The notes beneath the pieces are model-generated. The model was not told where the DNA came from. It worked only from the letters and a program-made list of their open reading frames with translations, and searched no databases. From positions 4,109-68,108 of the forward strand of contig CAZBPN010000004.1 of assembly GCA_964493735.1 (NCBI GenBank): a stretch of 64,000 bases of DNA, in the 5' to 3' direction. The position numbers and the translations under genes were made by a program. This DNA is from an uncultured Rickettsiales bacterium. Its GTDB lineage: Bacteria; Myxococcota_A; UBA796; UBA9615; CAYRNR01. Positions 1,694-48,469 of the stretch are shown here, in pieces (the first letter of the stretch is position 1; every line of letters starts with the position of its first letter).

Positions 1694-3097
1694 TCAGCAG
1701 CCGTCGTTGGCCCCGCCCGGCGTGCCCAGATCGCCGTCGCCGTAGCTCGAGCTGGCCTCGCACCAGTGGGAGCCGTCGTCGTTGGCGGTGTGGGTCAGGT
1801 AGGCCGGGGCCAGGCTCATCGACGCCCCGGTGGGATCGGGGAAGGTGGCGCCGTCGTCCCAGGCGATCCGGTCGATCTGAAGACCGCCGCAGCTGAGGAT
1901 CAGCTCGTCGTCGCCGTTGGTCAGGTTCAGTCCGCCGCCGTACTCGTAGTCCAGCGAGACACCGCCGTTGAGCCAGGTGTCGGCCTCGGTGCCCAGGACC
2001 ACGTAGCCACCGCCCCACACGACCAGCGGGCCCGCGATGGTGTGGTCCAGCCCGTCGTCGTCGGACAGCTGGCAGCCCTCCAGGTCCAGGGAACTGCCGG
2101 TGGTGTTGTGGAGCTCGAACCACTCCCCGTCGTTGTCGGAGACCGCAGCCGGGTTCTGCATCACCTCGGTGACGATGACACCGCCCACCGGGACACCGCC
2201 CCCTCCGCCGCAGTCGTCGTTCGCGGCGCCCGGCGTGCCCAGGTCGCCGTCGCCGTAGCTGGAGCTGGCCTCGCACCAGTGAGAGCCGTCGTCGTTGGCG
2301 CCCGCGTCCAGGGATCCGGGATCCAGGCTCATCGATGCGCCGTCCGGATCCGGGAAGTCCGGCCCGCCGTCGTACTCCACGGCGTCCACGGTCAGCCCCG
2401 CGCAGTCCAGGTAGATCTCGTCGTCGGAGTTGGAGAGGCTGACGGCGCCACCGTACTCGTAGTCGACCACGGCGCCGCCGTTGAGCAGCTGGTTCCCCAG
2501 CGCGCCGAGGACCAGGTAGTCGCCGGGACCCACCAGCAGGCTCGTCCCCGGGCTGATCACGTGGGAGTCCGCCCCGGCGTCGGAGACCACCCAGCCCATC
2601 AGGTCCACGAAGCCGCCGCTGGCGTTGTAGATCTCGAACCACTCCCCCTCGCCGTCGGCGACGGCCAAGGGGTTGGGCATGATCTCGCTGATCACCACGT
2701 CGCCGAACGAGACGAAGTCCTCGTCCGCGATCCCGTCGCAGTCCTGGTCGACGCCGTCGTCGATCTCGGCGGCTCCGGGGTGCACGCCCGGGTCCCCGTC
2801 GTCGCAGTCGTCCGGCTCCTCGTACCCGTCCCCATCGGCGTCGCCCGGCGCCGTGTCGTCGTCCCCGGTGTCGTCGTCCCCGGTGTCGTCGTCCCCGGTG
2901 TCGTCATCCCCGGTGTCGTCATCCCCGGTGTCGTCGTCGCCGGTGTCGTCGTCGCCGGTATCGTCGTCGCTGTTGTCGTCGTCGTCATCGTCGCCGTTGT
3001 CGTCGTCGTCCTGCGGCGGGGGCGGCGGCGGACAGCCGGCCCACAGCAGCGCGGCGAGCAGCAGGAGGGAGAGGCGCCACGGGATCCGGGCGTTCAT
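1694..3097 (-). CDS. secreted lipoprotein with an acidic (DDDTG)n linker and two tandem lamin-tail (LTD) domains
   Basis: Signal peptide plus lipobox LWAGC. Eight DDDTG repeats follow the lipobox. Two copies of the LTD signature are present: SEIMPNP..GEWFEIYN and TEVMQNP..GEWFELHN. A GAGGAGG ribosome-binding site lies upstream of the ATG. Confidence 0.75.
   Translation of the reverse strand: MNARIPWRLSLLLLAALLWAGCPPPPPPQDDDDNGDDDDDDNSDDDTGDDDTGDDDTGDDDTGDDDTGDDDTGDDDTGDDDTAPGDADGDGYEEPDDCDDGDPGVHPGAAEIDDGVDQDCDGIADEDFVSFGDVVISEIMPNPLAVADGEGEWFEIYNASGGFVDLMGWVVSDAGADSHVISPGTSLLVGPGDYLVLGALGNQLLNGGAVVDYEYGGAVSLSNSDDEIYLDCAGLTVDAVEYDGGPDFPDPDGASMSLDPGSLDAGANDDGSHWCEASSSYGDGDLGTPGAANDDCGGGGGVPVGGVIVTEVMQNPAAVSDNDGEWFELHNTTGSSLDLEGCQLSDDDGLDHTIAGPLVVWGGGYVVLGTEADTWLNGGVSLDYEYGGGLNLTNGDDELILSCGGLQIDRIAWDDGATFPDPTGASMSLAPAYLTHTANDDGSHWCEASSSYGDGDLGTPGGANDGC
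2853..2966. repeat. about 7.5 tandem copies of the 15-bp unit ccggtgtcgtcgtcc, which encodes (DDDTG)n on the minus strand
   Basis: Direct reading of lines 2821-3000 shows near-identical 15-mers in tandem. Confidence 0.8.
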
Positions 3098-3133
3098 GTC
3101 GGGACCTCCTCGTCCGGCGGGGGCGGCGCCGGA

Positions 3134-4072
3134 TCAGGGGACCAGTTTTGCCCCGAAGACCGAGTCGGATCCACTGTTGACCGTCGAATCCAGGATCACC
3201 TCGACCGTGCCCTCCAGGCAGTAGTGGCCGTGGTAGTCCCACACGTAGTCCCCGGAGGCATCCACCTGGTCGATGACCACGGCGTTGCCGTCCACGAGGA
3301 ACAGGGCGCCGTCGGGGTTGCGGTTCTCGGTGTGCCGGCCGCCCACGTACGCGTCGTACCAGCCGCGAGGCACGTTGGAGAAGGTGAACGTCGCGGTGCC
3401 GGTGCGCGATCCGTCCGGGGCGTACAGGGCGTCGCACTCCTCGTGCTCGTCCCCCGACGCCGTGTAGGCATAGGGCCGGCAGGTCAGCACCCAGTTGTGC
3501 CGCTCCGTGTAGGCGGCCACGTCGTAGTCGATCTCCATCTCGTAGGGCGGGTTGCCGGGATCCGTCTCGCAGGAGTCGTCGTCGTCGTCGTCTCCCCCGG
3601 GGAACTCGCACTCGCACCAGTCGGACTGGTGGCCGTTGACGTCGCCACAGCTCAGCACGTTCTGTGGCTCCTTGATGCAGCCCGGCTCACCGCCGTAGCG
3701 CCGGACGCAGACCATGCCGGCGGCCGCGCAGTAGGCCCCGCAGCCGGCGCCGTCGGTGAACACGCCGTTGCAGTAGTCGTCCCCGGTCTCACAGACCTCC
3801 CACGCCGGGTTGGTCTGGGAGATCAGCGAGCAGTCAGCCGGGGTGGTGTCGTCGTCCCCGGTGTCGTCGTCGGCCGTGTCGTCGTCTCCGGTGTCGTCGT
3901 CCCCGGTGTCGTCGTCCCCGGTGTCGTCGTCGGCGACGTCGTCGTCGTCCCCCGTCAGGTCGTCGTCGTCGCCCACGTCGTCGTCGCCGGCCACGTCGTC
4001 GTCGTGTACCGACGTACAGCTCAGCGCCCAGGGAGACAGTGCGAGCAACAAGGCCAGGATCGTGACACGCAT
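3134..4072 (-). CDS. secreted Cys-rich lipoprotein with an acidic (DDDTG)n linker; function unknown
   Basis: Signal peptide with lipobox LSC, then a DDDTG repeat, then a Cys-rich module and a C-terminal domain of unknown function. A GGAGGGG ribosome-binding site is upstream. Confidence 0.65.
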   Translation of the reverse strand: MRVTILALLLALSPWALSCTSVHDDDVAGDDDVGDDDDLTGDDDDVADDDTGDDDTGDDDTGDDDTADDDTGDDDTTPADCSLISQTNPAWEVCETGDDYCNGVFTDGAGCGAYCAAAGMVCVRRYGGEPGCIKEPQNVLSCGDVNGHQSDWCECEFPGGDDDDDDSCETDPGNPPYEMEIDYDVAAYTERHNWVLTCRPYAYTASGDEHEECDALYAPDGSRTGTATFTFSNVPRGWYDAYVGGRHTENRNPDGALFLVDGNAVVIDQVDASGDYVWDYHGHYCLEGTVEVILDSTVNSGSDSVFGAKLVP

Positions 4073-4139
4073 GGGGCCCCTCCGTCCGTCGGCAGGATAC
4101 CAGAGGGGGCGGCGTACCCCGCCGCTGGCGGATCGGGGA

Positions 4140-5084
4140 TCAGCCGAGGCGGGTCAGGAGCTCGGCGTGGGGTTCGTCTCCCAGGTCGCGGAGGCGAACG
4201 CGCTGGGCGGCCAAGAGGGCCGCCAGGTTGATCGCGGGGCGGTCGTCGCGGGCGGCGTCGGTGGCGTCGAGCAGGACGATGCGCAGGCGCGGCACGGTGG
4301 TCAGGGCGCGGGCCGCAGCCTCCTGCTCGGCGAGCATCGCCTCGTGGCCGGGGTGGGAGCCCACGTTGCCCCGCCCATCGGTGATCAGGACCAGCAACCG
4401 CCGCCGTCCATCATCCCGCCGTCCGTCCGCGGCCAGGGTGTCCAGGGATCGCTGCAGCGCGGACGCCAGTGGCGTCGTCCCGCCGCAGGGTAGACCGGCG
4501 ACGGCGCGCCGCACCAGCTCGGCCTGGGCGGTGGGCCGCAGCAGCAGGGGGGCATCACGGCCGGCGAACGCGATCAGCGCGACCTGGTCCCGCTGCAGGT
4601 AGGCGTCTCGCAGCAGGCCGACGGCGGCCCGCCGCGCCAGGGCGATCCGCTCGCCGCCCATGGAGCCGGAGGCGTCCACCGTGAACAGGACGAGGCGGCC
4701 CGGCCGGATGCGTCGGCGATGAGCGCGGAGGTCGGTCCGATCCAGACGCAGGGGCAGCTCCGGGGCACCGCTGGCCCCGAGTCGGGGCGCCGCCCGCGCC
4801 AGGGTCTGCGTCCAGGCCAGGTCCCGGGAACCGTCGGCCGGCCGGCTGCCCCAGGGGTGTCCCCGGTGGGGCCGCCCCGACGGCACCGACCGGCCCCGGC
4901 GCCGGCCGGGGTTGGCGGTCCGTTCCCGGTCGCCCGACAAGACCTGCTCCTCCCCGGGGAGGGGGGCAAGCAGGGGGGCGTCGGCGTTCGCCGGGGCGAA
5001 CAGCCCGAGCCCGAACAGCCCTTCTGAAGGGGATGCCGGCGCCTTGCCGTCCCGTGCCGCGGCGGTCGCGACGTCGCCCTGCAA
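4140..5084 (-). CDS. VWA (von Willebrand factor A) domain protein resembling the C-terminal half of the ChlD/BchD subunit. The start codon is uncertain: TTG at 5084 or GTG at 4886, or the protein is made as a fusion by a minus-one frameshift from the upstream ChlI-like gene
   Basis: The C-terminal 250 aa carry the MIDAS motif (VLFTVDASGSMGG) and match the ChlD-type VWA domain (LITDGRGNV). This frame has no in-frame ATG upstream of the VWA domain. The same frame continues upstream through a Pro-rich linker (RRPPPLTPGAPDREPPPPQ) to the ChlI-like stop codon. Confidence 0.5.
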   Translation of the reverse strand: MQGDVATAAARDGKAPASPSEGLFGLGLFAPANADAPLLAPLPGEEQVLSGDRERTANPGRRRGRSVPSGRPHRGHPWGSRPADGSRDLAWTQTLARAAPRLGASGAPELPLRLDRTDLRAHRRRIRPGRLVLFTVDASGSMGGERIALARRAAVGLLRDAYLQRDQVALIAFAGRDAPLLLRPTAQAELVRRAVAGLPCGGTTPLASALQRSLDTLAADGRRDDGRRRLLVLITDGRGNVGSHPGHEAMLAEQEAAARALTTVPRLRIVLLDATDAARDDRPAINLAALLAAQRVRLRDLGDEPHAELLTRLG

Positions 5085-5179
5085 CCGGCGGCCGTGGTTG
5101 CGGATGGCGTCCTGTGGGGGCGGAGGCTCTCGGTCGGGCGCGCCGGGGGTCAGCGGCGGGGGCCGCCTCGCCGCGGCGC

Positions 5180-10759: not shown

Positions 10760-12004
10760 ATGAGGAACGTCGCCCGAACCTTCCTGAGCATCCTGGTGAT
10801 GGGGGCCCTGGTGGGCTGCTTTGCCGAGGCCCCGAAGGATCCGCCGGGGCCCCAGGCCGAGGACGACATGTCCGCCCGCAACGGCGGCCCGTCGGTGCGT
10901 CTGATGCACCCCCAGAACGGGCAGGCCGTGCCCAACCCGGTCTCCTTCGCCATCGACACCACCGCCGGGATCCACAAGGTCGTCTTGGACGCGGACGGCT
11001 GGGTCCTCGACGAGTGGGATCCCCACCACTACACGATCGTGGATTACACCTTCCAGGGCGTGAACACGCCGCGGGTGATCACCCTCACCGGGTTCGACGC
11101 CCACGGCACCCCGAAGGACACCGACAGCGTCGTTATCACGGTCTACAACGATGACGGCGGTGGCGGCTCCACCCCCGGGGGCACCGACGTCCGCATCACC
11201 GCCCCGGGCGACGGGGCCGACGTCCACAACCCCGTCACCTTCGACACCAGCTCCAACGGGATCCACGCGCTCAAGCTGTTCGCGGACGGCTACGACATCA
11301 GCGACTTCTGGAAGCCCGAGTGGGGCAGCACCCATACCTACGAGTTCTCCCAGGGCGGCACCCGGGAGATCGAGCTGGTCGGCTACGACAGCGGCTGGAA
11401 CCGGGTCGCCAAGGACGTCATCACCATCCACGTCGACGGGGCCAGCAACCCGGGCAACGACAACAACAACAACAACGGCAACAACAACAACGGGGGCAAC
11501 AACAACGGCTCGCTCAACGTCCCGTACTACTACCAGTACAGCAACGCGTACGAGCCGAGCGCCACCTGCGGGCTGACGTCGGCGGCCATGCTGCTGAGCT
11601 ACATGAAGGGCACCAGCGTCGACCCCGACACCCTCTACCTGAACTACGGCAAGGCCCAGGGGCAGTCGCCGGGTTCCCTCGCGCAGCTGTACAGCTGGGA
11701 GGGCCTGTACGCGGACTCCACCTACGGCGGCACCCGTTCCATGATCAAGAACCAGCTGGACGCTGGCCGGCCCGTGCTGGTGCACACCTTCCTCACCGGC
11801 GCGGGCCACATCATCTGCATCGTCGGCTACGACGGTAGCGGCTGGATCGTCAACGATCCGGCCGGCGACTGGTACCAGTGCTACGGCTGCGGCGCCTACG
11901 GCGACCACGTGCACTATCCCTACGGCGGCGGCGCCGACGATGCCTTCAGCCACGACGGGGACATCTGGATGTCCTCGGCGGACACGTCCTCGTTCGGCTT
12001 CTAG
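10760..12004 (+). CDS. secreted lipoprotein with two tandem N-terminal repeat modules of about 75 aa, a poly-Asn linker and a C39-like (papain-fold) cysteine peptidase domain
   Basis: The ATG at 10760 has a GGAGG ribosome-binding site and starts a signal peptide with lipobox LVGC. The two repeat modules read PNPVSFAIDTTAGIHKVVLDADGWVLDEW and HNPVTFDTSSNGIHALKLFADGYDISDFW. They are followed by NNNNNGNNNNGGNNNG. The catalytic Cys (SATCGLTSAAML) and His (GHIICIVGYD) are present. Confidence 0.7.
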   Translation: MRNVARTFLSILVMGALVGCFAEAPKDPPGPQAEDDMSARNGGPSVRLMHPQNGQAVPNPVSFAIDTTAGIHKVVLDADGWVLDEWDPHHYTIVDYTFQGVNTPRVITLTGFDAHGTPKDTDSVVITVYNDDGGGGSTPGGTDVRITAPGDGADVHNPVTFDTSSNGIHALKLFADGYDISDFWKPEWGSTHTYEFSQGGTREIELVGYDSGWNRVAKDVITIHVDGASNPGNDNNNNNGNNNNGGNNNGSLNVPYYYQYSNAYEPSATCGLTSAAMLLSYMKGTSVDPDTLYLNYGKAQGQSPGSLAQLYSWEGLYADSTYGGTRSMIKNQLDAGRPVLVHTFLTGAGHIICIVGYDGSGWIVNDPAGDWYQCYGCGAYGDHVHYPYGGGADDAFSHDGDIWMSSADTSSFGF

Positions 12005-15094: not shown

Positions 15095-16354
15095 TCAGCC
15101 CTGGAGCCGACGCCGGCGCAGGCCGATCAAGATCAGCGGGGCGGCGAGCCCCACCCGGGCCCACGGACGCGCCGCGTGGGGCTCGGAACCGCAGGAGCAA
15201 CCGTCCTGCCCTCCGCCGGGCGGACCGGGCGGATCGCCGCCCGTGTCGTCATCCCCCGTCGCGTCGTCGTCGTCATCCCCGGCCGTCGCGTCGTCGTCAT
15301 CATCGTCGCCTGTGGCGTCGTCGTCCCCGGTGGCGTCGTCGTCGTCATCGTCGCCGGTGGCGTCGTCATCGTCCCCCGGCGGCGAGTAGCTGAACCGCAT
15401 CGCGTCGTACCCGATCTTGCGGCCGAGGGTCTCGTAGTCCTCACCGGTGTTGTCGCCCAGGTGGACGTACTGCTCGGACGAGCCGTCGAAGCGGAACGTG
15501 CCCAGGGTCTGCCAGCCCTTGTCCTCGGACTGGTTCACCGTGGCGGGGCTGACACCGTCGGCGTGGTGGATCTGGTAGGTGGCGTGGTGGGAATCGGCCT
15601 CGGTGTCGGGGATGTGGGCGTCCACCCGGTAGTCGCCGGCCACGGTCACCTCGAAGAGCCACTCCCCGGTGGTCTCCTCGACCGGCTCGTCGGTGGCGTA
15701 GGTGTAGTAGTGGTGTCCGTCGTGGCCCTCGGCCACGTCCCACCACCACTGGCTGACCCGCCGGAAGCAGCTGCCGTCGCTCTCGCTGACCACCGTCTCG
15801 TCGCCGTCCAGGGTGGCCTCGCACCCGCAGCCGGATCCGCAGTTGTCCGACGTCACCGAGGTCGGGTAGAGGGGGTCGCCCACGTCCAGGAACTCCGCGT
15901 GGATCGACTGGCACCACCAGGAGTTGCACAGCTCCTGGATCTGGTAGTGCAGGTGGGCTCCACAGACCCAGCCGGTCAGCCCCACCCGCCCGACCACGTC
16001 GCCAGCACAGACGTCGTCCCCCACCTGGAGGGAGGACGACCAGGTGTCCAGGTGCAGATAGAGTGCCGCGCTCCCGTCGCCGTGGTCGACGACCACGTAG
16101 TTGGCGTCGTTGGCGTAGGCCGCGTCGCAGCCGCCCGTGGTGGAGTCCATCCGGATCTCGTCGACCACCCCCGGCGCCGACGCCCAGACCTCCTCGCCGA
16201 CCCCCATCCCGAAGTCCCAGGCCCAGGCCCCCATGCCCGTGTGACTGCCGCCGTTGTGGTCCTGGGTGATCTGGAAGGTCGCGCCACAGCTCCACGGCAG
16301 CTCCAGCGGAGGGGTGGAGAGCACCACCAGGGTGAGGAGCGCGGGGAGCTGCAT
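15095..16354 (-). CDS. secreted M23 metallopeptidase with a D-rich (DDDATG)n region and a MYXO-CTERM sorting signal
   Basis: M23 motifs present include HTGMGAWAWDF and HGDGSAALYLHL. A C-terminal D-rich repeat is followed by GCSCGS, a hydrophobic stretch (LAAPLILIGL) and RRRRLQG, which matches the MYXO-CTERM sorting signal. Confidence 0.75.
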   Translation of the reverse strand: MQLPALLTLVVLSTPPLELPWSCGATFQITQDHNGGSHTGMGAWAWDFGMGVGEEVWASAPGVVDEIRMDSTTGGCDAAYANDANYVVVDHGDGSAALYLHLDTWSSSLQVGDDVCAGDVVGRVGLTGWVCGAHLHYQIQELCNSWWCQSIHAEFLDVGDPLYPTSVTSDNCGSGCGCEATLDGDETVVSESDGSCFRRVSQWWWDVAEGHDGHHYYTYATDEPVEETTGEWLFEVTVAGDYRVDAHIPDTEADSHHATYQIHHADGVSPATVNQSEDKGWQTLGTFRFDGSSEQYVHLGDNTGEDYETLGRKIGYDAMRFSYSPPGDDDDATGDDDDDDATGDDDATGDDDDDDATAGDDDDDATGDDDTGGDPPGPPGGGQDGCSCGSEPHAARPWARVGLAAPLILIGLRRRRLQG

Positions 16355-22853: not shown

Positions 22854-24401
22854 TCAGTCCACGTAGCCGAGGGCCTTCATCCGTTCCAGCGCTTCCGGGG
22901 TGACGGCGGGGGCGGAGCCGGTGGCCCAGGGGCGGGTGCCGTCCTCGTGGGTGGGGACGGTACGGACCGGTCGGCGACGGGCGGCTCGGTCGGTGAGGGC
23001 CGTGGTGATCGGACGGCCGGCCATGTCCTCGCCCACGGGTAGGCCCATCAGCCACAGGGCGGTCGGGGTCACGTCGACCGACGCGACCGGGGCTTCCAGG
23101 GCACCCGGGCGGACGCCGGGGCCGAGGACGGCGAAGATCCCCTGGTCCTCGACCCGGTGGTAGCCGCTGTTGACGAACACCGAGAAGGTGGGCTCCACGT
23201 GGCGACCCAGGGTCGCGGCGGCGGTGGCGAGGACCGGGTCGGTGGGGATCAGCTTGCCGCGCCGCTCCCGGAGCAGGGGCTCGCCGGAGTGGGTGCGGGC
23301 GGCGAGGAGGCGCTCGACCACGGCCGGCGCGCCTTCGCCGGTGACCGTCAGCTCCGGGGCGCTGAGCCGGTAGGTGAGCTCGGGCACGGCCCCGTCGACC
23401 CAGCGGTGGCCGGACTCCAGGCGGATGGAGGCGCCCTCGCTGTCGAAGGTCCCCCGCTCGACCGTGCCGTCCCCCCCGTCGAGCAGGGCGCGGGAGAGGG
23501 CGATCCGGCGGTGGGACGAGTCGGTTCCGGTGTGGCCGTGGTCGCTGATCACGATCACGTAGCCGTCGTCGCCGACGTACCCGAGCGCGCGCCCCACGAG
23601 CGCGTCGGCCATGGCGTGGGTCTGCAGGACCAGGTCGTGGCCCGTCTGGGTGCGAGCCCGTTCGGCCTCCGGGACGCGGGTCAGGTCCGCGCCGCCGGCC
23701 ACGGCGGCGTGCTCTGCCCACAGCATGTGGAGGGCCAGGTCGACCGGGTACACGGGCAGGACCAGCAGGTCGAATCGCTCGGCGTCCATCCACCCGTCCA
23801 TCCACGCCGTCGAGCTGTCCGACAGCAGGTCGAGGGCGCCGAGCTCCTCCCGACGGGCCGAGGGCTCGATGGCATCGCCCAGCCGCTGGTGGGCGTCGGC
23901 CGGGTGGGCCGAGGGGCCGCCAGGGATGTCCGCGGCCGGGGCGAAGGCGGCCTTGCCGATCATCACGCCTTCGATGGCATAGGCCGGGTGGGTCAGCCAG
24001 TAGTCGACCACCAACGACCGCTTGCCCGCGCTGCTGGCGATGTCCCACACCCGTTTGACCCGTACCTGGTCGCCGCCCATCTGCAGGACGTCCTGCCGGC
24101 GGTCGGGCAGGGACACCCCGTGCACCTCCGGGTGGTGGCCGCTGGCCAGGGTGGTCCAGCTGACCGGGGAGAACGCGCTGTCCACGTCCAGCCGTGCCGA
24201 GGCCCCGTCGCGTCGCATCCGCGCCAGGTGGGGTAGCCCGCCGGCCTCGATGTGGGGGTCGATCAGGTCCCAGTCCCCGCTGTCGATGCCGACGATGGCG
24301 ACGGTGGCGCCCGGGGCCTCGCCGCGGCAGCCCCCGCCGGCTGTGGCCAGGATCGCCAGCAGTACCAGGGCGGGGGCTGTGCGCGGAGGAGCGGGGATCA
24401 C
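22854..24401 (-). CDS. alkaline-phosphatase superfamily protein (type I phosphodiesterase or nucleotide pyrophosphatase-like), predicted lipoprotein
   Basis: The AP-superfamily metal-site motifs VIVISDHGHTG and GIDSGDWDL are present. The start is a GTG at 24401, overlapping the upstream stop codon as GTGA. The N-terminal Arg-rich part of the 631-aa track ORF is an artefact. Confidence 0.6.
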   Translation of the reverse strand: MIPAPPRTAPALVLLAILATAGGGCRGEAPGATVAIVGIDSGDWDLIDPHIEAGGLPHLARMRRDGASARLDVDSAFSPVSWTTLASGHHPEVHGVSLPDRRQDVLQMGGDQVRVKRVWDIASSAGKRSLVVDYWLTHPAYAIEGVMIGKAAFAPAADIPGGPSAHPADAHQRLGDAIEPSARREELGALDLLSDSSTAWMDGWMDAERFDLLVLPVYPVDLALHMLWAEHAAVAGGADLTRVPEAERARTQTGHDLVLQTHAMADALVGRALGYVGDDGYVIVISDHGHTGTDSSHRRIALSRALLDGGDGTVERGTFDSEGASIRLESGHRWVDGAVPELTYRLSAPELTVTGEGAPAVVERLLAARTHSGEPLLRERRGKLIPTDPVLATAAATLGRHVEPTFSVFVNSGYHRVEDQGIFAVLGPGVRPGALEAPVASVDVTPTALWLMGLPVGEDMAGRPITTALTDRAARRRPVRTVPTHEDGTRPWATGSAPAVTPEALERMKALGYVD

Positions 24402-25063
24402 AGCAGCTGGATGATCGTGACCATGGTCTCGCAGCCGTCGACGCCGCCGGCGGCGGCCGCCGGCCCGCCCAGGTAGCCCACCGGGATCGACTCCTCGGCC
24501 GCGACCTGGGCGTTGTGGTTGGAGTCGATGATCGAGCCGCCGGTGTCGTAGAGCGTCACCTGGGCCGCGCCGCCGCCCACGTAGTCGATCACCCCGGCGA
24601 TCATCCGGGTCACCTCGCAGTCCAGACCCGAGAAATCCAGATACAGCTCGGCGGGGTAGATCCAGACGTCGCCACTTGCCGCCTCGCCCGCGCAGCCGGA
24701 GCAGACGCTGCTGTCCCGCAGCACCAGCTCGACCTCCAGCTCGTTCCACGCCGTGTCGCAGCTGTTGATGGACTGGCTGGTGTCCAGGGTCAGGGTGATC
24801 CCCCCCTGGTCGACGCAGGGGGGCAACCCCGAGTCGTCGTCGTCCCCGGAGTCGTCGTCTCCGGTGTCGTCGTCCCCGGAGTCGTCGTCCCCGGTGTCGT
24901 CGTCGTCCCCGGTGTCGTCGTCCCCGGTGTCGTCGTCGTCCCCGGTGTCGTCGTCCGCCCCGCTGTCGTCGTCGTCATCGTCGTCGTCATCCGCGGTCGG
25001 GCAACCCGGGCCCGCCAGCAGCCACGCGGTGGCGAGCAGCCACACCATCCAGGATTTCTTCAT
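24398..25063 (-). CDS. small lipoprotein with an acidic ([10 protein letters not shown])n linker
   Basis: Lipobox AGPGC followed by a D-rich repeat and a 140-aa Cys-containing domain. Confidence 0.65.
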   Translation of the reverse strand: MKKSWMVWLLATAWLLAGPGCPTADDDDDDDDDSGADDDTGDDDDTGDDDTGDDDDTGDDDSGDDDTGDDDSGDDDDSGLPPCVDQGGITLTLDTSQSINSCDTAWNELEVELVLRDSSVCSGCAGEAASGDVWIYPAELYLDFSGLDCEVTRMIAGVIDYVGGGAAQVTLYDTGGSIIDSNHNAQVAAEESIPVGYLGGPAAAAGGVDGCETMVTIIQLL

Positions 25064-25139: not shown

Positions 25140-26402
25140 TCAGAAGGGCACGTTGCACTGGCCGTAGGCGTTGTTGCCCCAGCACTTCAGCTTGCCGTCG
25201 GCCGTGAGCCCGCAGGCGTGGTAGACTCCCCCCCTGACCGGGACGAAGTGCGCCGGCGGCGGGTTGCACTGGCCGTCTCCGTTGAGGCCGAAGCAGACCA
25301 GCTCGTCGTCCACGGTCAGGGCGCAGGTGTGGCGGATGGTGCAGTCGACCCACTGGTACTGCAGGGGCGGCACGTTGCACTGGCCGAAGTTGTTGTTGCC
25401 CCAGCAGATCAGGGTGCCGTCGGCCTTGAGCCCGCAGACGTGGAAGCCGCCCGCGATCACGGAGACGAAGTCCTCGTTGGGCGGTATGTCCAGCTCCCCC
25501 CAGTCGTTGGTGCCCCAGCAGACGGTCTCGCCGGCGGTGGACAGGGCGCAGGCGTGGTAGTGGCCCAGGCTCACCTGGGTGAAGGTCCCGGTCGGGGGCG
25601 TGATGGGCGCGTAGACCCCCGTACCCCAGCAGAGGATCTCCTCGGTGGTCGTCAGCCCGCAGGTGAAGTGGTAGCCGGCGCTGATCTGGGTGAAGGTGTC
25701 CGGGGGCGCGTTGGACTGGCCGTGGGCGTTGCCCCCCCAGCAGCTGACCGTGCCGTCGGTGCGGCGCCCGCAGGTGTGGTGCTTGCCCGCGCTGACCTCG
25801 GCGAAGGGCTCGTAGGGCGCCGACGCCTGGCCCAGGTCGTTGCGACCCCAGCAGGTCAGGTAGCCGTCCGAGCCCAGGGCACAGTTGTGGTCGCGGCCCG
25901 CGTCGATCTGCACGTAGCCGTATTCGTCGATGGTGCCGTCGCAGTCGTTGTCGATCCCGTCGCCGTACACGTCGAGGGCGAAGGGGTGGGTGTTGGCGTC
26001 CACGTCGTCGCAGTCGCCGTCGCACTCGGTGAACCCGTCGCCGTCCACGTCGGTCTCGTTCCCGTCGATCGACCCGTCGCAGTCGTTGTCCATGATCCCG
26101 TCGCAGGCGTGCTCGGCGTCCGGGTGGACCGCGTCGTTGGCGTCGTTGCAGTCCACGTCCTCGGTGTAGCCGTCGCCGTCCGCGTCCACCCCGGTCGTGG
26201 TGGTGTCGTCGTCTCCGGACGTATCGTCGTCTCCGGTGGCGTCGTCGTCCCCGGTGGCGTCGTCGTCTCCGGTGGCGTCGTCGTCTCCGGTGGCGGCGTC
26301 GTCTCCTTCGATGGTGCCCGTGCAGGCGGGCGCGAGCAGGGCCGCCGCGAGGAGAATCACCGCGGCGAGCCACCCCACCTCATTCCATCGAAGTTCTGCC
26401 AC
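25140..26402 (-). CDS. RCC1-repeat (beta-propeller) secreted protein with an acidic linker and two MopE-type metal-binding motifs
   Basis: A GTG start has a GGAGG ribosome-binding site. The signal peptide is AELRWNEVGWLAAVILLAAALLAPAC. A (DDDATG)n linker follows. The MopE-type motifs read DCNDANDAVHP...CDGIMDNDCDG. The protein has seven RCC1-like HTCG/HxCA...CWG repeats. The upstream part of the 784-aa track ORF is an artefact. Confidence 0.7.
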   Translation of the reverse strand: MAELRWNEVGWLAAVILLAAALLAPACTGTIEGDDAATGDDDATGDDDATGDDDATGDDDTSGDDDTTTTGVDADGDGYTEDVDCNDANDAVHPDAEHACDGIMDNDCDGSIDGNETDVDGDGFTECDGDCDDVDANTHPFALDVYGDGIDNDCDGTIDEYGYVQIDAGRDHNCALGSDGYLTCWGRNDLGQASAPYEPFAEVSAGKHHTCGRRTDGTVSCWGGNAHGQSNAPPDTFTQISAGYHFTCGLTTTEEILCWGTGVYAPITPPTGTFTQVSLGHYHACALSTAGETVCWGTNDWGELDIPPNEDFVSVIAGGFHVCGLKADGTLICWGNNNFGQCNVPPLQYQWVDCTIRHTCALTVDDELVCFGLNGDGQCNPPPAHFVPVRGGVYHACGLTADGKLKCWGNNAYGQCNVPF

Positions 26403-29307: not shown

Positions 29308-30060
29308 ATGCGTACCATCGGCCTTCTCTGGATCTCGATCCTCCTGTTCGCCCTGCTCACGACCGGGTGCCCGACGGACGACGACGACGCCACGGGCGAT
29401 GACGACGCCACGGGTGACGACGATGACGCCACGGGCGACGACGACACCACGGGCGACGACGACACCTCCGGCGACGACGATTCCACCGGCGGAGGCGAGG
29501 TGATCGCGGACTCGGTCGCCGAGTTCTCCTCGACCCAGGGGCAGGACGGCTGGACCTATGGTTTCTGGGACCGGACGGAGGACGAGGCCACGGGCGACGG
29601 CGCCTACGCCGCGGACGAGTTCGTGGAGATGGCGGAGTGGTCCGTCGACGTCAGCGTCTGGGACGTTGCCGAGGGCGAGGGGGGGTACTGGACGCGCCTG
29701 AGTGCGTCGGCGGCGCACCCCAATGGTCTCGACGGCCGCCAGGGGCGTCTCGCCGTCCGCCACTGGGCGATCCGGCGATGGACCGCCGAATCCGACGGGG
29801 ATGTCCGCATCACCGGGAACGTGCACAAGCTCCAGACCGAGGGCGACGGCGTCATCGCGCTGGTCCTCGTCGACGGTGTGGTCGAGCAGGGCGACACGAT
29901 CGCGCCCACCGACACCACGGGGGTGGATCTGGATCTCTGCGTGGCCCTGACCGCCGGCCAGTCGGTCGACTTCGCGGTCACCGACGGCCAGAACGGCAGC
30001 GACGAGGGGGACCGCTCCCACCAGGTCGTGGTCGTCGAGACCGTCCCCGGCGGCTGCTGA
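29308..30060 (+). CDS. lipoprotein with an acidic (DDDATG)n linker; function unknown
   Basis: Lipobox LTTGC followed by a D-rich repeat and a 180-aa domain. Confidence 0.65.
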   Translation: MRTIGLLWISILLFALLTTGCPTDDDDATGDDDATGDDDDATGDDDTTGDDDTSGDDDSTGGGEVIADSVAEFSSTQGQDGWTYGFWDRTEDEATGDGAYAADEFVEMAEWSVDVSVWDVAEGEGGYWTRLSASAAHPNGLDGRQGRLAVRHWAIRRWTAESDGDVRITGNVHKLQTEGDGVIALVLVDGVVEQGDTIAPTDTTGVDLDLCVALTAGQSVDFAVTDGQNGSDEGDRSHQVVVVETVPGGC

Positions 30061-30124: not shown

Positions 30125-31054
30125 GTGGCCGCTCACTCCGCTCGCTGGTTGCCCGTCTGGCTGATCGGTTGCCTGCTCGCCGCGGGATGCCCGGACCCCC
30201 TGGACGACGACGTGGTCGGCGACGACGACGTGGGCGACGACGACGTGGGCGATCCCACCCTCTACAACCACGTCGCGGCCGGGGAGTACCACACCTGCGC
30301 GGTCCGGCTGGATGGCACCCTGGCCTGCTGGGGCCGGGACGACTACGGCCAGGCCTCGCCCCCGGACGGCACCTTCACCTGGGTCGGCGCGGGCGGCTCC
30401 AACAACGAGGCCCACAGCTGCGCCATCCACACGGACGAGACCATCCGCTGCTGGGGGTTCGGCGACGACGGGCAGCTGGACGCGCCGGGGGGCAACTACA
30501 TCCGGCTGGACGCGGGCGGCTGGCACAACTGCGCCGTCGGCGCCGGCGGGGACCTCTCCTGCTGGGGCGCCGACTTCAGCGGCCAGGCCACCCCCCTACC
30601 CGGGAGCTACAGCGACGTCTCCTGCGGCGGTGCCCACACCTGCGCCATCTCCGACGTGGACGGGTCCGCCGTCTGCTGGGGACACGACGCCAACGACCAG
30701 TCGACCCCCGTACCCGGCGACTACGATCAGATCGACGCCGGGGGCCTCCACACCTGCGCGGTCCAGACCGACGGCGGCCTCGGCACCTGCTGGGGTGCTC
30801 CCTGGCAGGACATGTCGATCCCACCGCCGGGCGTGGCCTTCGTCACGATGGGCCTCGGCGAGAACCACTCCTGCGGGGTGACCACCGACGGCGAGATCGT
30901 CTGCTGGGGAGAGAACCTGGACGCCCAGGGCGACGCACCCGAGGGCAACTACATCCAGGTCACCGCCGGCCGCAAGCACACCTGTGGCCTGACCTTCGAC
31001 CAGCGGATCGTCTGCTGGGGGAGCAACGACGAGGGGCAGTGCGACGTGCCCTAG
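30125..31054 (+). CDS. RCC1-repeat lipoprotein with an acidic (DDDVG)n linker
   Basis: Lipobox LAAGC. Seven HTCA/HxCG...CWG RCC1-like repeats. Confidence 0.75.
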   Translation: MAAHSARWLPVWLIGCLLAAGCPDPLDDDVVGDDDVGDDDVGDPTLYNHVAAGEYHTCAVRLDGTLACWGRDDYGQASPPDGTFTWVGAGGSNNEAHSCAIHTDETIRCWGFGDDGQLDAPGGNYIRLDAGGWHNCAVGAGGDLSCWGADFSGQATPLPGSYSDVSCGGAHTCAISDVDGSAVCWGHDANDQSTPVPGDYDQIDAGGLHTCAVQTDGGLGTCWGAPWQDMSIPPPGVAFVTMGLGENHSCGVTTDGEIVCWGENLDAQGDAPEGNYIQVTAGRKHTCGLTFDQRIVCWGSNDEGQCDVP

Positions 31055-38371: not shown

Positions 38372-38862
38372 ATGCGTGCGATCGAACGTTCTCGGCTCTC
38401 CTGGATCCTGATCCCCGCGGCCCTCGGGCTGCTCTCCCTGGGGCTGATCCTCGGAGTCGGTTGCCCGACGGTGACCGATGACGACGACACCGCGGGCGAT
38501 GACGACGACGACGGTAGCGGGGACGAGTGCGGGGGTGGCGACTGCGTCTGCGCGGGCCAGAACTGCGTGTGCGTGGATGACGAGGAGTGCGACATCACCT
38601 GCGAGACCGGGGGCGGCAACTGCGCGGTCGAGTGCGGCCCAGGCTCCCTCTGCGACGTGGACTGCGACGGCTCGGCCAGCTGCGCGGTGGAGTGCATGAA
38701 CGCGGACGACTGCGAGGTCGACTGCTCCACCTCCGACAGCTGCGCGGTGACCTGCCCGACGTCCAACTGCGTGGTCCACAACTGCGACTTCGGGCTGGGG
38801 TGTGCGGTGACCTGCGGCGCCGGTGGGATCCCGGTCCAGCAGGGCGACGACTGGGTCTGTCT

Positions 38863-38866
<4 letters not shown>
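38372..38866 (+). CDS. Cys-rich secreted lipoprotein with an acidic linker
   Basis: An AGAGAGGA ribosome-binding site, lipobox GVGC and a [13 protein letters not shown] linker are present. About 30 Cys lie in CxC / CxxxC repeats ([31 protein letters not shown]...). Confidence 0.6.
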
Positions 38867-43332: not shown

Positions 43333-43336
43333 GGGA

Positions 43337-44158: not shown

Positions 44159-44183
44159 GGGGGCAGATTAGGGCCTTTCGCGA

Positions 44184-44515: not shown

Positions 44516-45463
44516 ATGGGTCAATATCAATCCGTTGTCACAGCTGTGTTCGTCGACTTCGACAACCTCCGTCTGGGGGTCCCCGACCCCTACCCCAAGA
44601 CCGACAGCGCCATCGAGATCCTGCGCCAGATGCAGCGGCGGTTCGAGCGGGAGGGTCAGCAGATCCTGATCCGCCGGGCGTACGCAGACTGGGAGGCGGA
44701 GGGGCTCGAGGGGGTGCAGGGCCAGCTGTCGCTGATGAGCTACCTGCCGGTGTTCGTCCTGGGGCAGCCGGGCAAGAACAGCGCCGACCTGGAGATGAGC
44801 CTGGACGCCATGGACATCCTGCTGAGCCGGGGGGACGTGGAGCGGTTCGTGCTGGTGGCCGGCGATCGGGACTTCATCCCCATCGTCCGGCGCATCATCG
44901 AGTCGGGCAAGCAGGTCAAGATCGCGTCGTTCCGCGGGTCGACCAGCGCGGACCTGGTGGAGATCGCCGGGCGGCGGAACTTCATCGACGTGTCGCGGTT
45001 CATGGACGATCCGCGCCGGCGGGAACAGCACGGCCAGAGCGCCACGGCGTCGATGACCGCCACGCGGACCATCGAGGAGGCCCTCGCCGAGCCGGACGAG
45101 GAGCCCTACGAACCCACCGACGAGGACCTGGACCGGGCGATGCAGCTCGTGGTCCAGGCGGACCGCAAGTACCGGGGCCGCGGGATCTGGCTGGTGCCCT
45201 TCTTCAAGGAGTGGATGAACCCCGAGTTCGCCGGGATGAACAACGAGAGCCGCAAGGCCATCCTGTCCACCCTGTCCAACGACAACGCCGTGGTGATCGA
45301 CACGCGCGAGGATGGGCTGGGCCGCTCCAACTCCTACTCCGTGCTGGTCCCCGACCGGGAGCACGACCGCTACAAGAAGGCCGAGGCGTCCCTGGACGCC
45401 GAGCCGGCGGCGGAGGCCGCGACCGAGCTCGCCGCGCCGGTGGTGGCGGTGCCGGAGGAGTAG
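44516..45463 (+). CDS. NYN-domain (LabA/DUF88) protein with a C-terminal OST-HTH/LOTUS-like domain
   Basis: NYN motifs are VFVDFDN and LVAGDRDFIPIVRRI. A GGGAG ribosome-binding site precedes the ATG at 44516. Confidence 0.7.
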   Translation: MGQYQSVVTAVFVDFDNLRLGVPDPYPKTDSAIEILRQMQRRFEREGQQILIRRAYADWEAEGLEGVQGQLSLMSYLPVFVLGQPGKNSADLEMSLDAMDILLSRGDVERFVLVAGDRDFIPIVRRIIESGKQVKIASFRGSTSADLVEIAGRRNFIDVSRFMDDPRRREQHGQSATASMTATRTIEEALAEPDEEPYEPTDEDLDRAMQLVVQADRKYRGRGIWLVPFFKEWMNPEFAGMNNESRKAILSTLSNDNAVVIDTREDGLGRSNSYSVLVPDREHDRYKKAEASLDAEPAAEAATELAAPVVAVPEE

Positions 45464-45467
45464 AGAT

Positions 45468-45505
<38 letters not shown>

Positions 45506-45509
45506 AAGA

Positions 45510-45527
45510 GGACCACGGGCAGCAAGC
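45510..45527. terminator. hairpin (gggcag-caag-ctgccc) between the convergent NYN-domain gene and the MopE-repeat gene
   Basis: A perfect 6-7 bp stem. It could act as a bidirectional terminator, but there is no clear U-tract. Confidence 0.3.
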
Positions 45528-45625
45528 TGCCCGTGCCACCCAAGCTGCGGGGCGATTCGACGCCGGGTGGCACGGCGAGCTCGCTCGCCGTGGTTCCCGG
45601 AACCGAGACCGAGTCCGAGGCGGGG

Positions 45626-48469
45626 CTAGCAGCCGTTGCCGGGGTAGACGGTGGGATCCCGGTCGTCGCAGTCCCAGCCGTCGGCGGGGTAGCTGACCGG
45701 GTCGTAGCTGCCCGGCTGCCACCACTCGGGGAAGCCGTCGAAGTCCAGATCGAACCCGTCCGCGTCGGGACCGCCGTACGCGCCGATGTCGGAGCGGGAG
45801 CCGTCGGGGTCGTACATGTTGTACACGCCCGTGTCGTACAGGCCCGACGCGCTGTCCAGGTGCAGGTCCCAGTCCAGCGGGTCGCCGGCGGCGGTGCCCA
45901 GGAAGGCCGGATCCACCGAGATGTTGCCGTTGAGTCCGCTCGGATCCGATCCGCCGGCGTAGTTGTCCGGCGAGTTGTCCCAGGCGTTGCAGTAGGTGAA
46001 CTGGGCGGTGGCCCAGTGGTAGACGCCGCCGCCCTCGACCGTGGCGGCGTTGCCGGCGGCGTTGAGGTTCTTGATGATCGGTGAGGTGTTGTACAGGTAG
46101 ACCCCGCCGCCGGTCTCCGCCTCGTTGCCGACCACGGTCAGGTTGAGCAGGTCCGGGTAGCCGAAGCCCTCCATGTACAGCCCGCCCCCCTCGCCCAGGG
46201 CCGAGTTGCCCAGCAGGCTGAGGTTGGTGAACTCGACCCCCGAGCCGTAGGCGTAGATGCCGCCACCCGCCAGGGCGATGTTGTCGGCGATCAGCACGTT
46301 GGTCAGCTCGGGCACGCCCCCGTACATGTAGATGCCGCCGCCCTCCAGGTCGGCCCCGTTGTCGTCGATCAGCACGTTGACCAGGGTCGGGCTCCCGCCC
46401 TGTACCGCCATCCCACCGCCCTGCCCCGCGGTGGCGCAGTCGGTGATCCAGACATCGGTCAGCGTCGGGCTCGACGCGGAGACCATCACGCAGCCGCCCA
46501 TCGTCCCGTCGTAGCCCCCGGTGATGGTGAAGCCCTCGAGCACCGTCGACGGGGTCTCACCGCCCGAGAACAGCACCGTGCGGGCCAGGTCGCCGCCGTC
46601 GATGATGGTCTCGTGGGGGCCCTCGACGCCGTACAGGTGGACCTCCCGGCCGCCGAAGTCCAGGTTCTCCTCGTAGATCCCGGCCGCGACGCAGATCACG
46701 TCCCCGTCGGCCGCGCCGTCGATGGCGTCCTGGAGGGTCGGGTACTCGCCGGGCACCGATCCGACCCCGGGCGCGCCCGGGTAGATGGTCGGATCGTCGT
46801 CGTCGCAGTCCCCCTCGCACAGGAAGGCGCCGTCCCCGTCCCCGTCCACCTCGTCGGCGAGCAGGTTGCCGTCGCAGTCGTTGTCCGCGCCGTCGCAGAT
46901 CTCGGGGGCGCCCTCGTAGACCGTCGCGTCGCCGTCGTCGCAGTCCAGGTCGTCGGCCGCGAAGTTCAGCGGCTGCTCGCAGGTCACCTGGGTCACGGCC
47001 TGGGTACCGTGGCCGTCCCCGTCCAGGTCCTGGTACCAGAGGGTGGCGTCGACCGCGTCGTCCTCGTCCACCTCCCCGTCGCAGTCGTCGTCGTGACCGT
47101 CGCAGTACTCGTCGGCGCCGGGGAAGATGGTGTCGTCGCCGTCGTCGCAGTCGGTGCACTCGCCGATGCCGTCCCCGTCCCCGTCCGGATCGTCGTCGGT
47201 GGCGCCGTCGCAGTCGTTGTCCGCCCCGTCGCACAGGATCTCCGGCAGCCCGGGGTGGACCAGCGGGTTGGTGTCGTCGCAGTCCACGCAGACCGGGAAC
47301 AGGTCCCCGTCCCCGTCGGGCTGGTCGTCGGTCACCAGGCTGCAGTCGTTGTCGATGCCGTCGCAGATGACCTCGGTCGCGCCCGGGAACACCGCCGGGT
47401 CGGTGTCGTCGCAGTCGTCGCAGGCGTCGAAGCCGTCCCCGTCGGCGTCGGGCATGTCGAGGGTGGCGGGGTCGCAGTCGTTGTCGACCCCGTCGCAGTG
47501 GGTCTCGCCGGCGCCCGGGTTGATCGCCGGGTCGGCGTCGGCGCAGTCGTCGCACGCGGAGTACCCGTCCGCGTCCACGTCCGGCTCGTCGATGGTGGCG
47601 GGGTCGCAGTCGTTGTCGACCGCGTCGCAGACCAGCTCCGGGGCGCCGGGGTAGGTCGTGGGCTCGGAGTCATCGCAGTCGGGCTGGCCGGCGGGGCCCC
47701 CGCAGACCATGTGGCCGTCGCCGTCCAGGTCGTCCTCCTCGCCCGGGACGGCGCCGTCGCAGTCGTTGTCCAGGCCGTCGCACAGCTCCTCGGCGCCCGG
47801 GTAGCGGGTGGGGTCGTCGTCGTCGCAGTCCACGCAGGAGTCGTGGCCGTCGAAGTCCGAGTCGTCCAGGTCCAGGGAGAGGGCGTCGCAGTCGTTGTCG
47901 ATGCCGTCGCAGGGGATCTCCTGGGCGCCCGGGTGGATGGCGGCGTCCCCGTCGTCGCAGTCCACGCAGCTGCCGTACCAGTCCCCGTCCCCGTCCGGGT
48001 TGTCCAGGGTGGCCTCGTCGCAGTCGTCGTCCACGCCGTTGCAGGCGGTCTCCTCGGCCGCCGGCCGCTCCGGATCCGCGTCGTCGCAGTCGCCGGCGCA
48101 GACCATCAGCCCGTCGCCGTCGCCGTCCTCCTCGTCCGCGCCGAGGCTGCCGTCGCAGTCGTCGTCGACACCGTTGCACTGTTCGTACGCGCCGGGGTGC
48201 ACGGTCGGATCGGCGTCGTCACAGTCACCGTCGTCAGGGCTCCAGCCGTCCCCGTCCTCGTCCACCTCCTCGGTGGCGTCGTCGTCTCCGGTGGTGTCGT
48301 CGTCCCCGGTGTCGTCATCCCCGGTGTCGTCGTCCCCGGTGTCGTCGTCTCCGGTGTCGTCGTCTCCGGTGTCGTCGTCGTCCGAGGCGGTGTCGTCGTC
48401 GTCGTCGGTGGGGCACCCACCGAGCACGAGGGCGAGCCCCAGCAGGATCAGCAGCAAGCGCGATGGCAT
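45626..48469 (-). CDS. giant lipoprotein with about 12 MopE-type Cys/Asp putative metal-binding motifs and a C-terminal right-handed beta-helix domain
   Basis: Lipobox LGGC followed by a (DDDTG)n linker. Repeated DCDDxDPxxxPGAxExCDGxDNDCDG units follow. The C-terminal 330 aa contain GGG-centred beta-helix rungs (GGGIYMYG, GGGIYAYG, GGGLYMEG, GGGVYLYN). Confidence 0.8.
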   Translation of the reverse strand: MPSRLLLILLGLALVLGGCPTDDDDDTASDDDDTGDDDTGDDDTGDDDTGDDDTGDDDTTGDDDATEEVDEDGDGWSPDDGDCDDADPTVHPGAYEQCNGVDDDCDGSLGADEEDGDGDGLMVCAGDCDDADPERPAAEETACNGVDDDCDEATLDNPDGDGDWYGSCVDCDDGDAAIHPGAQEIPCDGIDNDCDALSLDLDDSDFDGHDSCVDCDDDDPTRYPGAEELCDGLDNDCDGAVPGEEDDLDGDGHMVCGGPAGQPDCDDSEPTTYPGAPELVCDAVDNDCDPATIDEPDVDADGYSACDDCADADPAINPGAGETHCDGVDNDCDPATLDMPDADGDGFDACDDCDDTDPAVFPGATEVICDGIDNDCSLVTDDQPDGDGDLFPVCVDCDDTNPLVHPGLPEILCDGADNDCDGATDDDPDGDGDGIGECTDCDDGDDTIFPGADEYCDGHDDDCDGEVDEDDAVDATLWYQDLDGDGHGTQAVTQVTCEQPLNFAADDLDCDDGDATVYEGAPEICDGADNDCDGNLLADEVDGDGDGAFLCEGDCDDDDPTIYPGAPGVGSVPGEYPTLQDAIDGAADGDVICVAAGIYEENLDFGGREVHLYGVEGPHETIIDGGDLARTVLFSGGETPSTVLEGFTITGGYDGTMGGCVMVSASSPTLTDVWITDCATAGQGGGMAVQGGSPTLVNVLIDDNGADLEGGGIYMYGGVPELTNVLIADNIALAGGGIYAYGSGVEFTNLSLLGNSALGEGGGLYMEGFGYPDLLNLTVVGNEAETGGGVYLYNTSPIIKNLNAAGNAATVEGGGVYHWATAQFTYCNAWDNSPDNYAGGSDPSGLNGNISVDPAFLGTAAGDPLDWDLHLDSASGLYDTGVYNMYDPDGSRSDIGAYGGPDADGFDLDFDGFPEWWQPGSYDPVSYPADGWDCDDRDPTVYPGNGC

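Follow-up and report, generated by a model that had tools for sequence, protein, structure and literature searches.

Poly-aspartate stalks beside predicted lipid-anchor cysteines: a probable charged spacer, remodelled by repeat slippage, in an uncultured Myxococcota lineage

In outer-membrane lipoproteins of E. coli, the length and disorder of the N-terminal linker, and not its sequence, matter for sorting (10.1101/2021.01.05.425367). The lipoprotein export signal of Bacteroidota is a short acidic cluster close to the lipobox Cys (C-X-K-(D/E)2, or SDDDD in B. fragilis; PMC5080379). MYXO-CTERM proteins are surface-anchored via a predicted lipidated Cys, and a disordered region adjoins their tag (PMC11980579). 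Low-complexity regions also adjoin the PEP-CTERM and PGF-CTERM anchors, where they are Thr/Ser-rich, neutral and thought to be glycosylated (10.1101/2023.06.07.544157). Here we analyzed a 64,000-nt stretch (71% GC) of contig CAZBPN010000004.1 from an uncultured bacterium, henceforth the window, in which ten genes carry an acidic array of the form (D3-8 x1-3)n; the encoded segment is called the stalk.

Set beside the known disordered lipoprotein tether, the poly-Asp stalk is a variant in composition and in genetic make-up, and much of one clade's lipid-anchored exoproteome uses it. It resembles the linkers of El Rayes et al. (10.1101/2021.01.05.425367) in being a predicted unstructured segment right after the lipidated Cys of otherwise unrelated lipoproteins, but it consists of tandem Asp-rich units of 5-7 residues encoded by 15-18-nt repeats (~50-60% Asp, ~30 negative charges), and the same design recurs, mirrored, in front of C-terminal anchors. 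With the Bacteroidota export signal it shares an acidic cluster a few residues from the lipobox Cys and its presence in lipoproteins with extracellular-type domains; however, it occurs in another phylum (Myxococcota), it follows no Lys or polar-residue rule, its offset from the Cys is variable, its arrays are 5-10 times longer than the signal needs, and the window stalks, which contain no Lys, do not fit the Bacteroidota consensus (K-(D/E)2 or S-(D/E)3-4 at +2 to +6). As in the MYXO-CTERM/myxosortase system, and likewise in a Myxococcota lineage, two proteins of the window terminate in a Cys motif, a transmembrane helix and an Arg cluster (judged by eye in the case of 15095), and where that system has its disordered region, just upstream of the tag, these two have the stalk, but the Asp-repeat composition and the reuse after N-terminal lipoboxes are absent from the published descriptions of that system (PMC11980579; 10.1101/2023.06.07.544157). 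As in the PEP-CTERM and PGF-CTERM spacers, a low-complexity segment lies between the folded domain and the processed anchor, and the domain of one window protein (29308) is PEP-CTERM-anchored in other phyla; the difference is that the spacer here is polyanionic. A literature search with the literal repeat peptides and related keywords found no prior description within the paper library searched.

The ten genes that the original prediction had listed as carrying an acidic repeat at a lipobox or MYXO-CTERM end all translate as claimed (genes are named below by their first coordinate; Table 1). A six-frame scan of the window found arrays of at least three units in nine of these genes only, together with a two-run mini version in the 38372 gene, and Tandem Repeats Finder (TRF) reported arrays in the same nine (Table 1). 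Eight of the ten arrays are N-terminal, with a basic and hydrophobic leader, x-x-[GAS]-Cys, a few residues (PT, PTA, PTVT, PDPL, TSVH, TGTIEG or PPPPPPQ) and then the acidic units, each made of D3-8 and one to three small residues, usually with Gly last. Units number 2-10 per gene, where 4-10 had been counted, and the first Asp run does not follow the Cys immediately, as had been stated, but after 2-8 residues (at +3 to +9). Pattern matching returned the lipoboxes WAGC, ALSC, GPGC, APAC, TTGC, AAGC, GVGC and LGGC behind hydrophobic leaders containing Lys or Arg; by leader and lipobox, these eight proteins are predicted signal peptidase II lipoproteins. The remaining two arrays (15095 and 62084) are C-terminal; behind each comes a Cys motif, then a hydrophobic helix and finally an Arg cluster. 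For 62084, the MYXO-CTERM model TIGR03901 scored 23.2 bits (cutoff 20); 15095 did not reach this model at E<=0.01 and gave a weak MXAN_5453_fam match (E=0.0027), although by eye its tail is tripartite (GCSCG, LAAPLILIGL, RRRR).

Among the predicted lipoproteins of the window, 8 of 13 bear a stalk, as do both MYXO-CTERM-type proteins, and in all of them it lies beside the anchor Cys. The other five lipoproteins, which lack a stalk, comprise one Bmp-type ABC binding protein, two TPR proteins and two peptidases, one of them M23 and one C39-like. With the arrays removed, the array-bearing proteins contain 0.7-5% Lys plus Arg and have a pI of ~4.05, versus 8-13% and a pI of 5-6.7 for their cytoplasmic neighbours; the whole exoproteome seems strongly acidified.

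At the DNA level, the degenerate two-unit pattern GAYGAYGAYNNNGGNGAYGAYGAY occurred 29 times in the window and 0 times in 100 dinucleotide-preserving shuffles. The arrays had been described as near-identical 15-mers. The identity itself is there (93-95% from unit to unit), but ~90% is expected from codon usage alone (GAC 90%, ACC 77%, and the Gly codons), so the near-identity is mostly a consequence of strong codon bias acting on an identical peptide. The antisense (SSSPV)n shadow frames that had been pointed out are real and a trivial by-product of the repeat.

The ten proteins are not a paralogous family, as had been proposed. In an all-against-all BLASTP with the arrays masked, the two RCC1 proteins were related (38% identity, 4e-53) and short MopE-type motifs were common to three proteins, while all other pairs gave E>0.01; thus, apart from the RCC1 pair and the MopE motifs, the mature non-low-complexity parts are unrelated, and all that the ten have in common is a signal peptide and a low-complexity segment. 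The arrays also have their own codon signatures: Gly is GGG in 7 of 8 positions of the 24398 array, GGA in 3 of 4 of the 25140 array and GGC in 4 of 5 of the 29308 array, and synonymous codon identity was higher within than between arrays (Gly, p=0.001; Thr, p=0.008; 5000 permutations). This array-specific signature indicates that the arrays grew in place by local duplication and were not distributed as a shared module; they were generated by in-situ slippage of 15- or 18-nt units. A mobile N-terminal cassette was likewise rejected on the grounds of generic signal peptides, colinear orthologues and array-specific synonymous codons. For annotation, such proteins will cluster spuriously through low-complexity similarity without constituting a family.

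Another part of the proposal held up, namely that unrelated domains are linked to a membrane anchor by one flexible, acidic type of spacer. AlphaFold2 was run on one member, the 24398 protein, with a 16-sequence alignment. Its stalk had a predicted local distance difference test (pLDDT) score of ~50 (49-61 over residues 15-80) and no secondary structure, while scores exceeded 93 from residue 81; the model thus predicts that the segment between the Cys and the folded domain is intrinsically disordered. By regular-expression search, the calcium motif DxDxDG was absent from eight of the ten stalks (with one and three incidental matches in 38372 and 62084 respectively) and the RTX motif GGxGxD from all ten, and none of the Pfam or NCBIfam models covers the arrays.

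Population copies and orthologues bear on how the arrays change. Positions 14398-35063 of the window are found again, without gaps and at 99.2-99.9% identity, in five independent metagenome contigs. When the window was compared with up to five of these contigs per array, the five arrays covered showed no indels or single-nucleotide polymorphisms (SNPs). Considered as contingency loci, the arrays do not qualify, having units of 15 or 18 nt and no repeat-number polymorphism in the five covered. Orthologues of eight window genes in other metagenome-assembled genomes (MAGs), at 66-87% identity, all keep the stalk site and the globular domain. For seven of the eight, stalk lengths (window/relative, in residues) were close without being equal, at 56/47, 56/53, 57/49, 37/39, 16/15, 47/51 and 64/61, and DNA alignment between species placed in-frame indels at the array edges, including one of 12 nt between the 45626 gene and its orthologue.

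The 24398 family could be followed furthest. The stalk was present in 16 of 16 orthologues, down to ~43% aligned identity, and the lipobox Cys and the first Cys of the domain were 59.3±6.4 residues apart (13 of 16 within 56-61), with 20-36 Asp per stalk and an Asp content of 49-59%. The repeat unit differs by clade (e.g. DDDDAQG), and the residues between the Asp runs are TG, AA, ATG, SVG or AQG. The family has undergone concerted repeat turnover while length and charge stayed conserved, and a length held at 59±6 residues argues for stabilising selection over contingency-type variation. Selection keeps the presence, position, charge and roughly the length of the stalk in this family, and less strictly in a second (29308).

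Domain shuffling, which the original prediction had suggested, was not seen: no sign of exchange turned up, and in every pair of orthologues the signal peptide, the site of the stalk and the C-terminal domain correspond. Its suggestion of length variation was half right, as unit number does differ between species, but five arrays had no indels or SNPs across six population copies at 99.8% identity and one family is held near a fixed length. It had also stated what would count against it, namely invariant copy numbers among relatives and a linker that is lineage-typical with no sign of module exchange; the linker proved lineage-typical and no exchange was found, while copy number is invariant within the population only.

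The stalk is a lineage-wide building convention of a high-GC, mostly marine, uncultured Myxococcota clade, and not a gene family. Scanning GTDB species representatives for DNA encoding (DDDTG)3DDD gave at least 101 loci. Among the matches listed, 67 loci came from eight MAGs titled 'uncultured Rickettsiales' (25 from one MAG and 20 from another), three were singletons in unrelated taxa, and others were from 'Deltaproteobacteria' or 'Myxococcota' MAGs (RS363 Red Sea, FR_14, HK-STAS-FEN-2, MAG.506) and from 'bacterium CTOTU...' and 'proteobacterium' MAGs. The two array-richest MAGs have 69-71% GC and syntenic orthologues of the window genes. The 'uncultured Rickettsiales' label of the eight MAGs is almost certainly wrong, being untenable given ~70% GC in those checked, MYXO-CTERM tags, a CglD-like match and an orthologue (P0002) that NCBI names 'Myxococcota bacterium'.

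We classified 131 acidic regions from these relatives' loci: 74 come after a lipobox Cys, 22 stand ahead of a C-terminal tail that contains Cys, four lie near a stop codon without a Cys, ten are internal and 21 are cut by the locus edge. Read individually, the 22 Cys-containing tails comprised 13 MYXO-CTERM-like tails, six bare GCGC-type ends and three apparently incidental cases. A predicted lipid-anchor Cys, N- or C-terminal, therefore adjoins ~85% of the classifiable arrays. The first Asp run begins 0-24 residues after the Cys in relatives, and Pro at +2 was found in 21 of 37 stalk-bearing and 9 of 33 stalk-less lipoproteins. In a protein search seeded with 24398, all but one or two of the 120 matches listed were lipobox-plus-array proteins, among whose C-terminal domains were FGE-sulfatase, SMP-30, esterase, peroxiredoxin and PEBP, and 216 of 246 proteins fetched by stalk similarity had a lipobox and at least three Asp runs. 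A phmmer search with signal peptide and stalk against 1.84 billion representative proteins gave at least 144 matches (E<=1e-3), nearly all colinear at the N-terminus, a lower bound and not a census because a short low-complexity query scores weakly.

We consider it probable that the stalk is a selected, anchor-proximal, disordered polyanionic spacer next to the lipidated Cys, a lineage convention remodelled by slippage and likely exposed at the cell surface. The stalk sits directly beside the predicted lipidated Cys, whether that of an N-terminal lipobox or of a C-terminal MYXO-CTERM motif, and replication slippage of 15- or 18-nt units has given rise to each array in the gene that carries it and continually remodels it there. 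With 40-60 residues, a stalk would have a contour length of ~15-20 nm, and the charged spacer could hold unrelated domains (carbohydrate-binding-module (CBM)-like, LTD, RCC1, beta-helix, M23, TSP3) ~10-20 nm off the membrane, with electrostatic repulsion from anionic lipids or lipopolysaccharide keeping it extended. Loosely bound Mg2+ or Ca2+ from seawater probably accompany the stalk, non-specific binding being physically likely; given the lack of canonical calcium motifs in eight of the ten stalks, any cation binding would be of this non-specific polyelectrolyte kind. The domains are most likely displayed on the cell surface, a location suggested by the surface anchoring of MYXO-CTERM proteins, the PEP-CTERM anchoring of the 29308 domain elsewhere and the extracellular type of the domains.

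Several points weigh against this spacer reading: i) ~10 arrays are internal inter-domain linkers, so that anchor proximity is a strong tendency and not a rule; ii) in relatives, 37 lipoproteins with a stalk and 33 without one have overlapping Pfam repertoires, with MopE, beta-helix and FG-GAP in both, and the stalk is therefore neither a clean marker of one functional class nor discriminating support for a surface or a sorting model; iii) the M23 orthologue pair has a larger difference in stalk length than the other pairs; iv) stalks of the 29308 family are 44 and 51 residues long in a close pair but 25-26 in three more distant members; v) length statistics from stalk-fetched proteins are biased by the query used; and vi) the surface exposure of the domains and the binding of cations are inferences.

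An unlikely alternative is that the acidic run is mainly a sorting signal for surface export, either Bacteroidota-like or through Asp-based avoidance of the Lol pathway, with export by e.g. type II secretion (T2SS) as for MYXO-CTERM proteins and pullulanase. In most members the acidic residues start at +3 to +9 after the Cys, SDDDD is the B. fragilis export signal and two acidic residues are enough in C. canimorsus (PMC5080379), the same repeat precedes MYXO-CTERM, whose proteins reach the surface by T2SS (PMC11980579), and the excess of Pro at +2 beside stalks would fit as well. Since a few residues suffice for such a signal, length-conserved arrays of 40-60 residues are left unexplained by it; nor does an offset of 0-24 residues suit an export signal that is position-critical, or the use of the same repeats as internal linkers and the shared domain repertoire of stalk-bearing and stalk-less lipoproteins suit a sorting code. 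A sorting role is possible and compatible with the spacer model, but is not needed to explain the data. A more speculative reading, which we regard as improbable, is a two-ended 'surface display code', in which a polyanion beside a lipidated Cys (lipobox or MYXO-CTERM/GCGC) would route the protein to the outer leaflet and fix how far that particular protein reaches from the membrane, in analogy to the Bacteroidota export signal but independently of it.

It is also quite improbable that the arrays are a neutral lineage-specific low-complexity expansion, i.e., GAC-rich slippage tolerated in disordered tethers that already existed, with no selection on the acidic repeat. The lineage does have other low-complexity linkers (NNNNG in 10760-12004, (TE/SE)n in the kinase 55819-57768), codon bias alone predicts most of the unit identity, unit number drifts between species, and stalk length differs two-fold inside the 29308 family. 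However, neutrality does not account for the retention of presence, site, Asp content and length down to ~43% identity despite unit turnover, for the confinement of arrays to exported proteins, mostly anchor-adjacent, or for population copies without polymorphism, where unconstrained slippage-prone arrays should vary.

A specific structured Ca2+-binding module like RTX or TSP3/DxDxDG, folding upon calcium, is highly improbable. The Asp/Gly-rich composition, the 10 mM Ca2+ of seawater and the neighbouring DxDGDG-type MopE and TSP3 motifs in the same proteins would suit it, but the stalks largely lack the motifs named above, their spacer residues are freely exchanged among orthologues, and the region has neither predicted structure nor a profile match.

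The Vlp and Vsa surface lipoproteins of Mycoplasma have in-frame tandem DNA repeats that set the length of an extended surface region; the repeats make up the bulk of the protein, and populations show frequent variation in them. The arrays here differ in being invariant in the population sample and in serving as stalks for folded domains. That they are recombination or slippage hot spots for domain shuffling or for rapid antigenic or phase-like length variation of that type is hardly credible, for although the unit GGG-GAC-GAC-GAC-ACC is common to several genes, the adjacent same-strand genes 1694-3097 and 3134-4072 have arrays ~1 kb apart and unit number differs between species, the population copies are invariant, every orthologue pair retains its signal peptide and domain, the synonymous codons speak against exchange between genes, and units that are multiples of 3 nt make frame switching impossible.

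The features are collected in Table 1. Pfam and NCBIfam profile searches of the translated window genes bore out the domain calls made earlier, namely LTD (two), RCC1 (two), MopE with beta-helix, M23 with Golvesin_C, and TSP3/CglD-like with MYXO-CTERM. No RNA genes were found when the window was scanned with Rfam and for tRNAs.

Table 1. Stalk-bearing genes of the window and their acidic arrays. SP, signal peptide; TM, transmembrane helix. TRF arrays have period 15/18.
Feature	Position	Strand	TRF array	Orthologue
Lipoprotein gene: SP, Cys22, PPPPPPQ, 10-unit stalk, one MopE-type motif, two LTD domains	1694..3097	-		L022, 83% identity, 7 units
Acidic array of 1694-3097: DDDDNG DDDDDDNS (DDDTG)x7 DDDTA	2846..3010	-	2853-2983	
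Lipoprotein gene: SP, Cys19, TSVH, 10-unit stalk, Cys-rich domain without Pfam match	3134..4072	-		L022, 85% identity
Acidic array of 3134-4072	3839..4003	-	3845-3946	
M23 peptidase with Golvesin_C, C-terminal stalk, GCSCG, hydrophobic stretch, RRRR (MYXO-CTERM-like)	15095..16354	-		L084
C-terminal acidic array of 15095-16354 (out to 15245 by TRF)	15281..15373	-	15245-15373 (more degenerate)	
Lipoprotein gene: SP, Cys21, PTA, 9-unit stalk (61 residues to first domain Cys), 139-residue CBM-like beta-sandwich	24398..25063	-		
Acidic array of 24398-25063	24824..24988	-	24836-24956	
Lipoprotein gene: SP, Cys, TGTIEG, 6-unit DDDATG stalk, two MopE motifs, RCC1 propeller	25140..26402	-		L070, 76% identity
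Acidic array of 25140-26402, 18-nt units	26196..26285	-	26199-26306	
Lipoprotein gene: SP, Cys21, PT, 6-unit stalk (44 residues), 'IADSVAEF...' domain	29308..30060	+		
Acidic array of 29308-30060	29377..29490	+	29374-29491	
Lipoprotein gene: SP, Cys, PDPL, short 3-unit DDDV(V)G stalk, RCC1 propeller	30125..31054	+		L070, 2 units
Acidic array of 30125-31054	30203..30250	+	30205-30252	
Small Cys-rich lipoprotein, minimal two-run acidic head (~nt 38477-38524)	38372..38866	+		
Lipoprotein gene: SP, Cys19, PT, 8-unit stalk, at least nine MopE motifs, right-handed beta-helix	45626..48469	-		L051, 87% identity, 9 units
Acidic array of 45626-48469	48269..48406	-	48293-48379	
TSP3/CglD-like protein, runs past window end, C-terminal stalk, MYXO-CTERM tail (GGCKCA, TM, RRRIR)	62084..64000	-		L094
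C-terminal acidic array of 62084-64000	62246..62365	-	62200-62366 (more degenerate)	

The domain of the 29308 protein ('IADSVADF..QGxxGWxYGY') is anchored by lipobox and stalk in Myxococcota proteins, while in Verrucomicrobiales and other phyla it lacks the stalk, comes with an ordinary signal peptide and a PEP-CTERM tail and is sometimes duplicated (PF18573 matches); the same domain thus uses alternative anchoring systems. In the last RCC1 blade of the 25140 gene (25186-25250, minus strand), the window differs from all five contigs, elsewhere 99.8% identical to it, by 21 substitutions in 65 nt with no indel (window, PPPAHFVPVRGGVYHACGLTADGKLKCWGNN; the other five, PPPATYIQHTGGHDHSCGLTDDNMVLCWGNN), and its allele partly matches another blade of the same gene at 25415-25443 (27 of 29 nt), a pattern that suggests intragenic gene conversion between propeller blades. 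Nine substitutions within 27 nt at 23077-23103, found in contig L002 alone and every one a change to C or G, look like a local assembly or sequencing artefact and not biology.

Low-complexity segments of other composition also occur in the window. An NNNNG-type Asn analogue (GNDNNNNNGNNNNGGNNNG, 11455-11509), built of AAC-based units of 15-18 nt, lies in the stalk-less lipoprotein gene 10760-12004, where it forms an internal linker that precedes the C39-like peptidase domain. In the Ser/Thr kinase gene 55819-57768, a 12-nt tandem repeat (56135-56264) encodes an acidic low-complexity (TE/SE/DE)n segment that is placed in the extracytoplasmic part of this membrane-spanning kinase.

Two further arrangements recurred among the relatives. 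In large secreted proteins of six loci (L015, L016, L079, L088, L099 and L104; source MAGs CTOTU29523, CTOTU18725, CAXXWT01 and HK-STAS-FEN-2, GC 54-64%), a poly-Asp array leads directly into GCGC, CCGC, SCGC or GCGS and a stop codon, with no transmembrane or Arg tail in any downstream frame. Such an end, like a MYXO-CTERM signature minus the cleaved part, may represent a C-terminal anchoring motif not described so far. In multidomain secreted proteins (loci L018, L038, L050, L059, L080, L098 and L101), a conserved Cys-rich motif '...DGLFDCDDPDCAGxxxCxG' is repeatedly followed by an internal (DDDTG)n array, and the two together may form a recurring domain-plus-linker module.

The surface delivery and display of lipoproteins in diderms beyond Proteobacteria and Bacteroidota are poorly understood. 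The clade offers a natural experiment, with dozens of unrelated lipid-anchored proteins per genome that bear one recognisable polyanionic stalk at either terminus, conserved in length and charge even as its sequence changes. If the stalk tracks surface exposure, the surface proteome of uncultured marine Myxococcota could be predicted from sequence alone and a portable display tether would be gained, and if the display code were true, the same system would have one more, so far undescribed, C-terminal anchoring signal in the bare poly-Asp-GCGC-COOH ends of the fen and CTOTU MAGs. If it does not track surface exposure, the stalk would still clearly exemplify a disordered region whose length and charge are under selection while slippage keeps altering its sequence.

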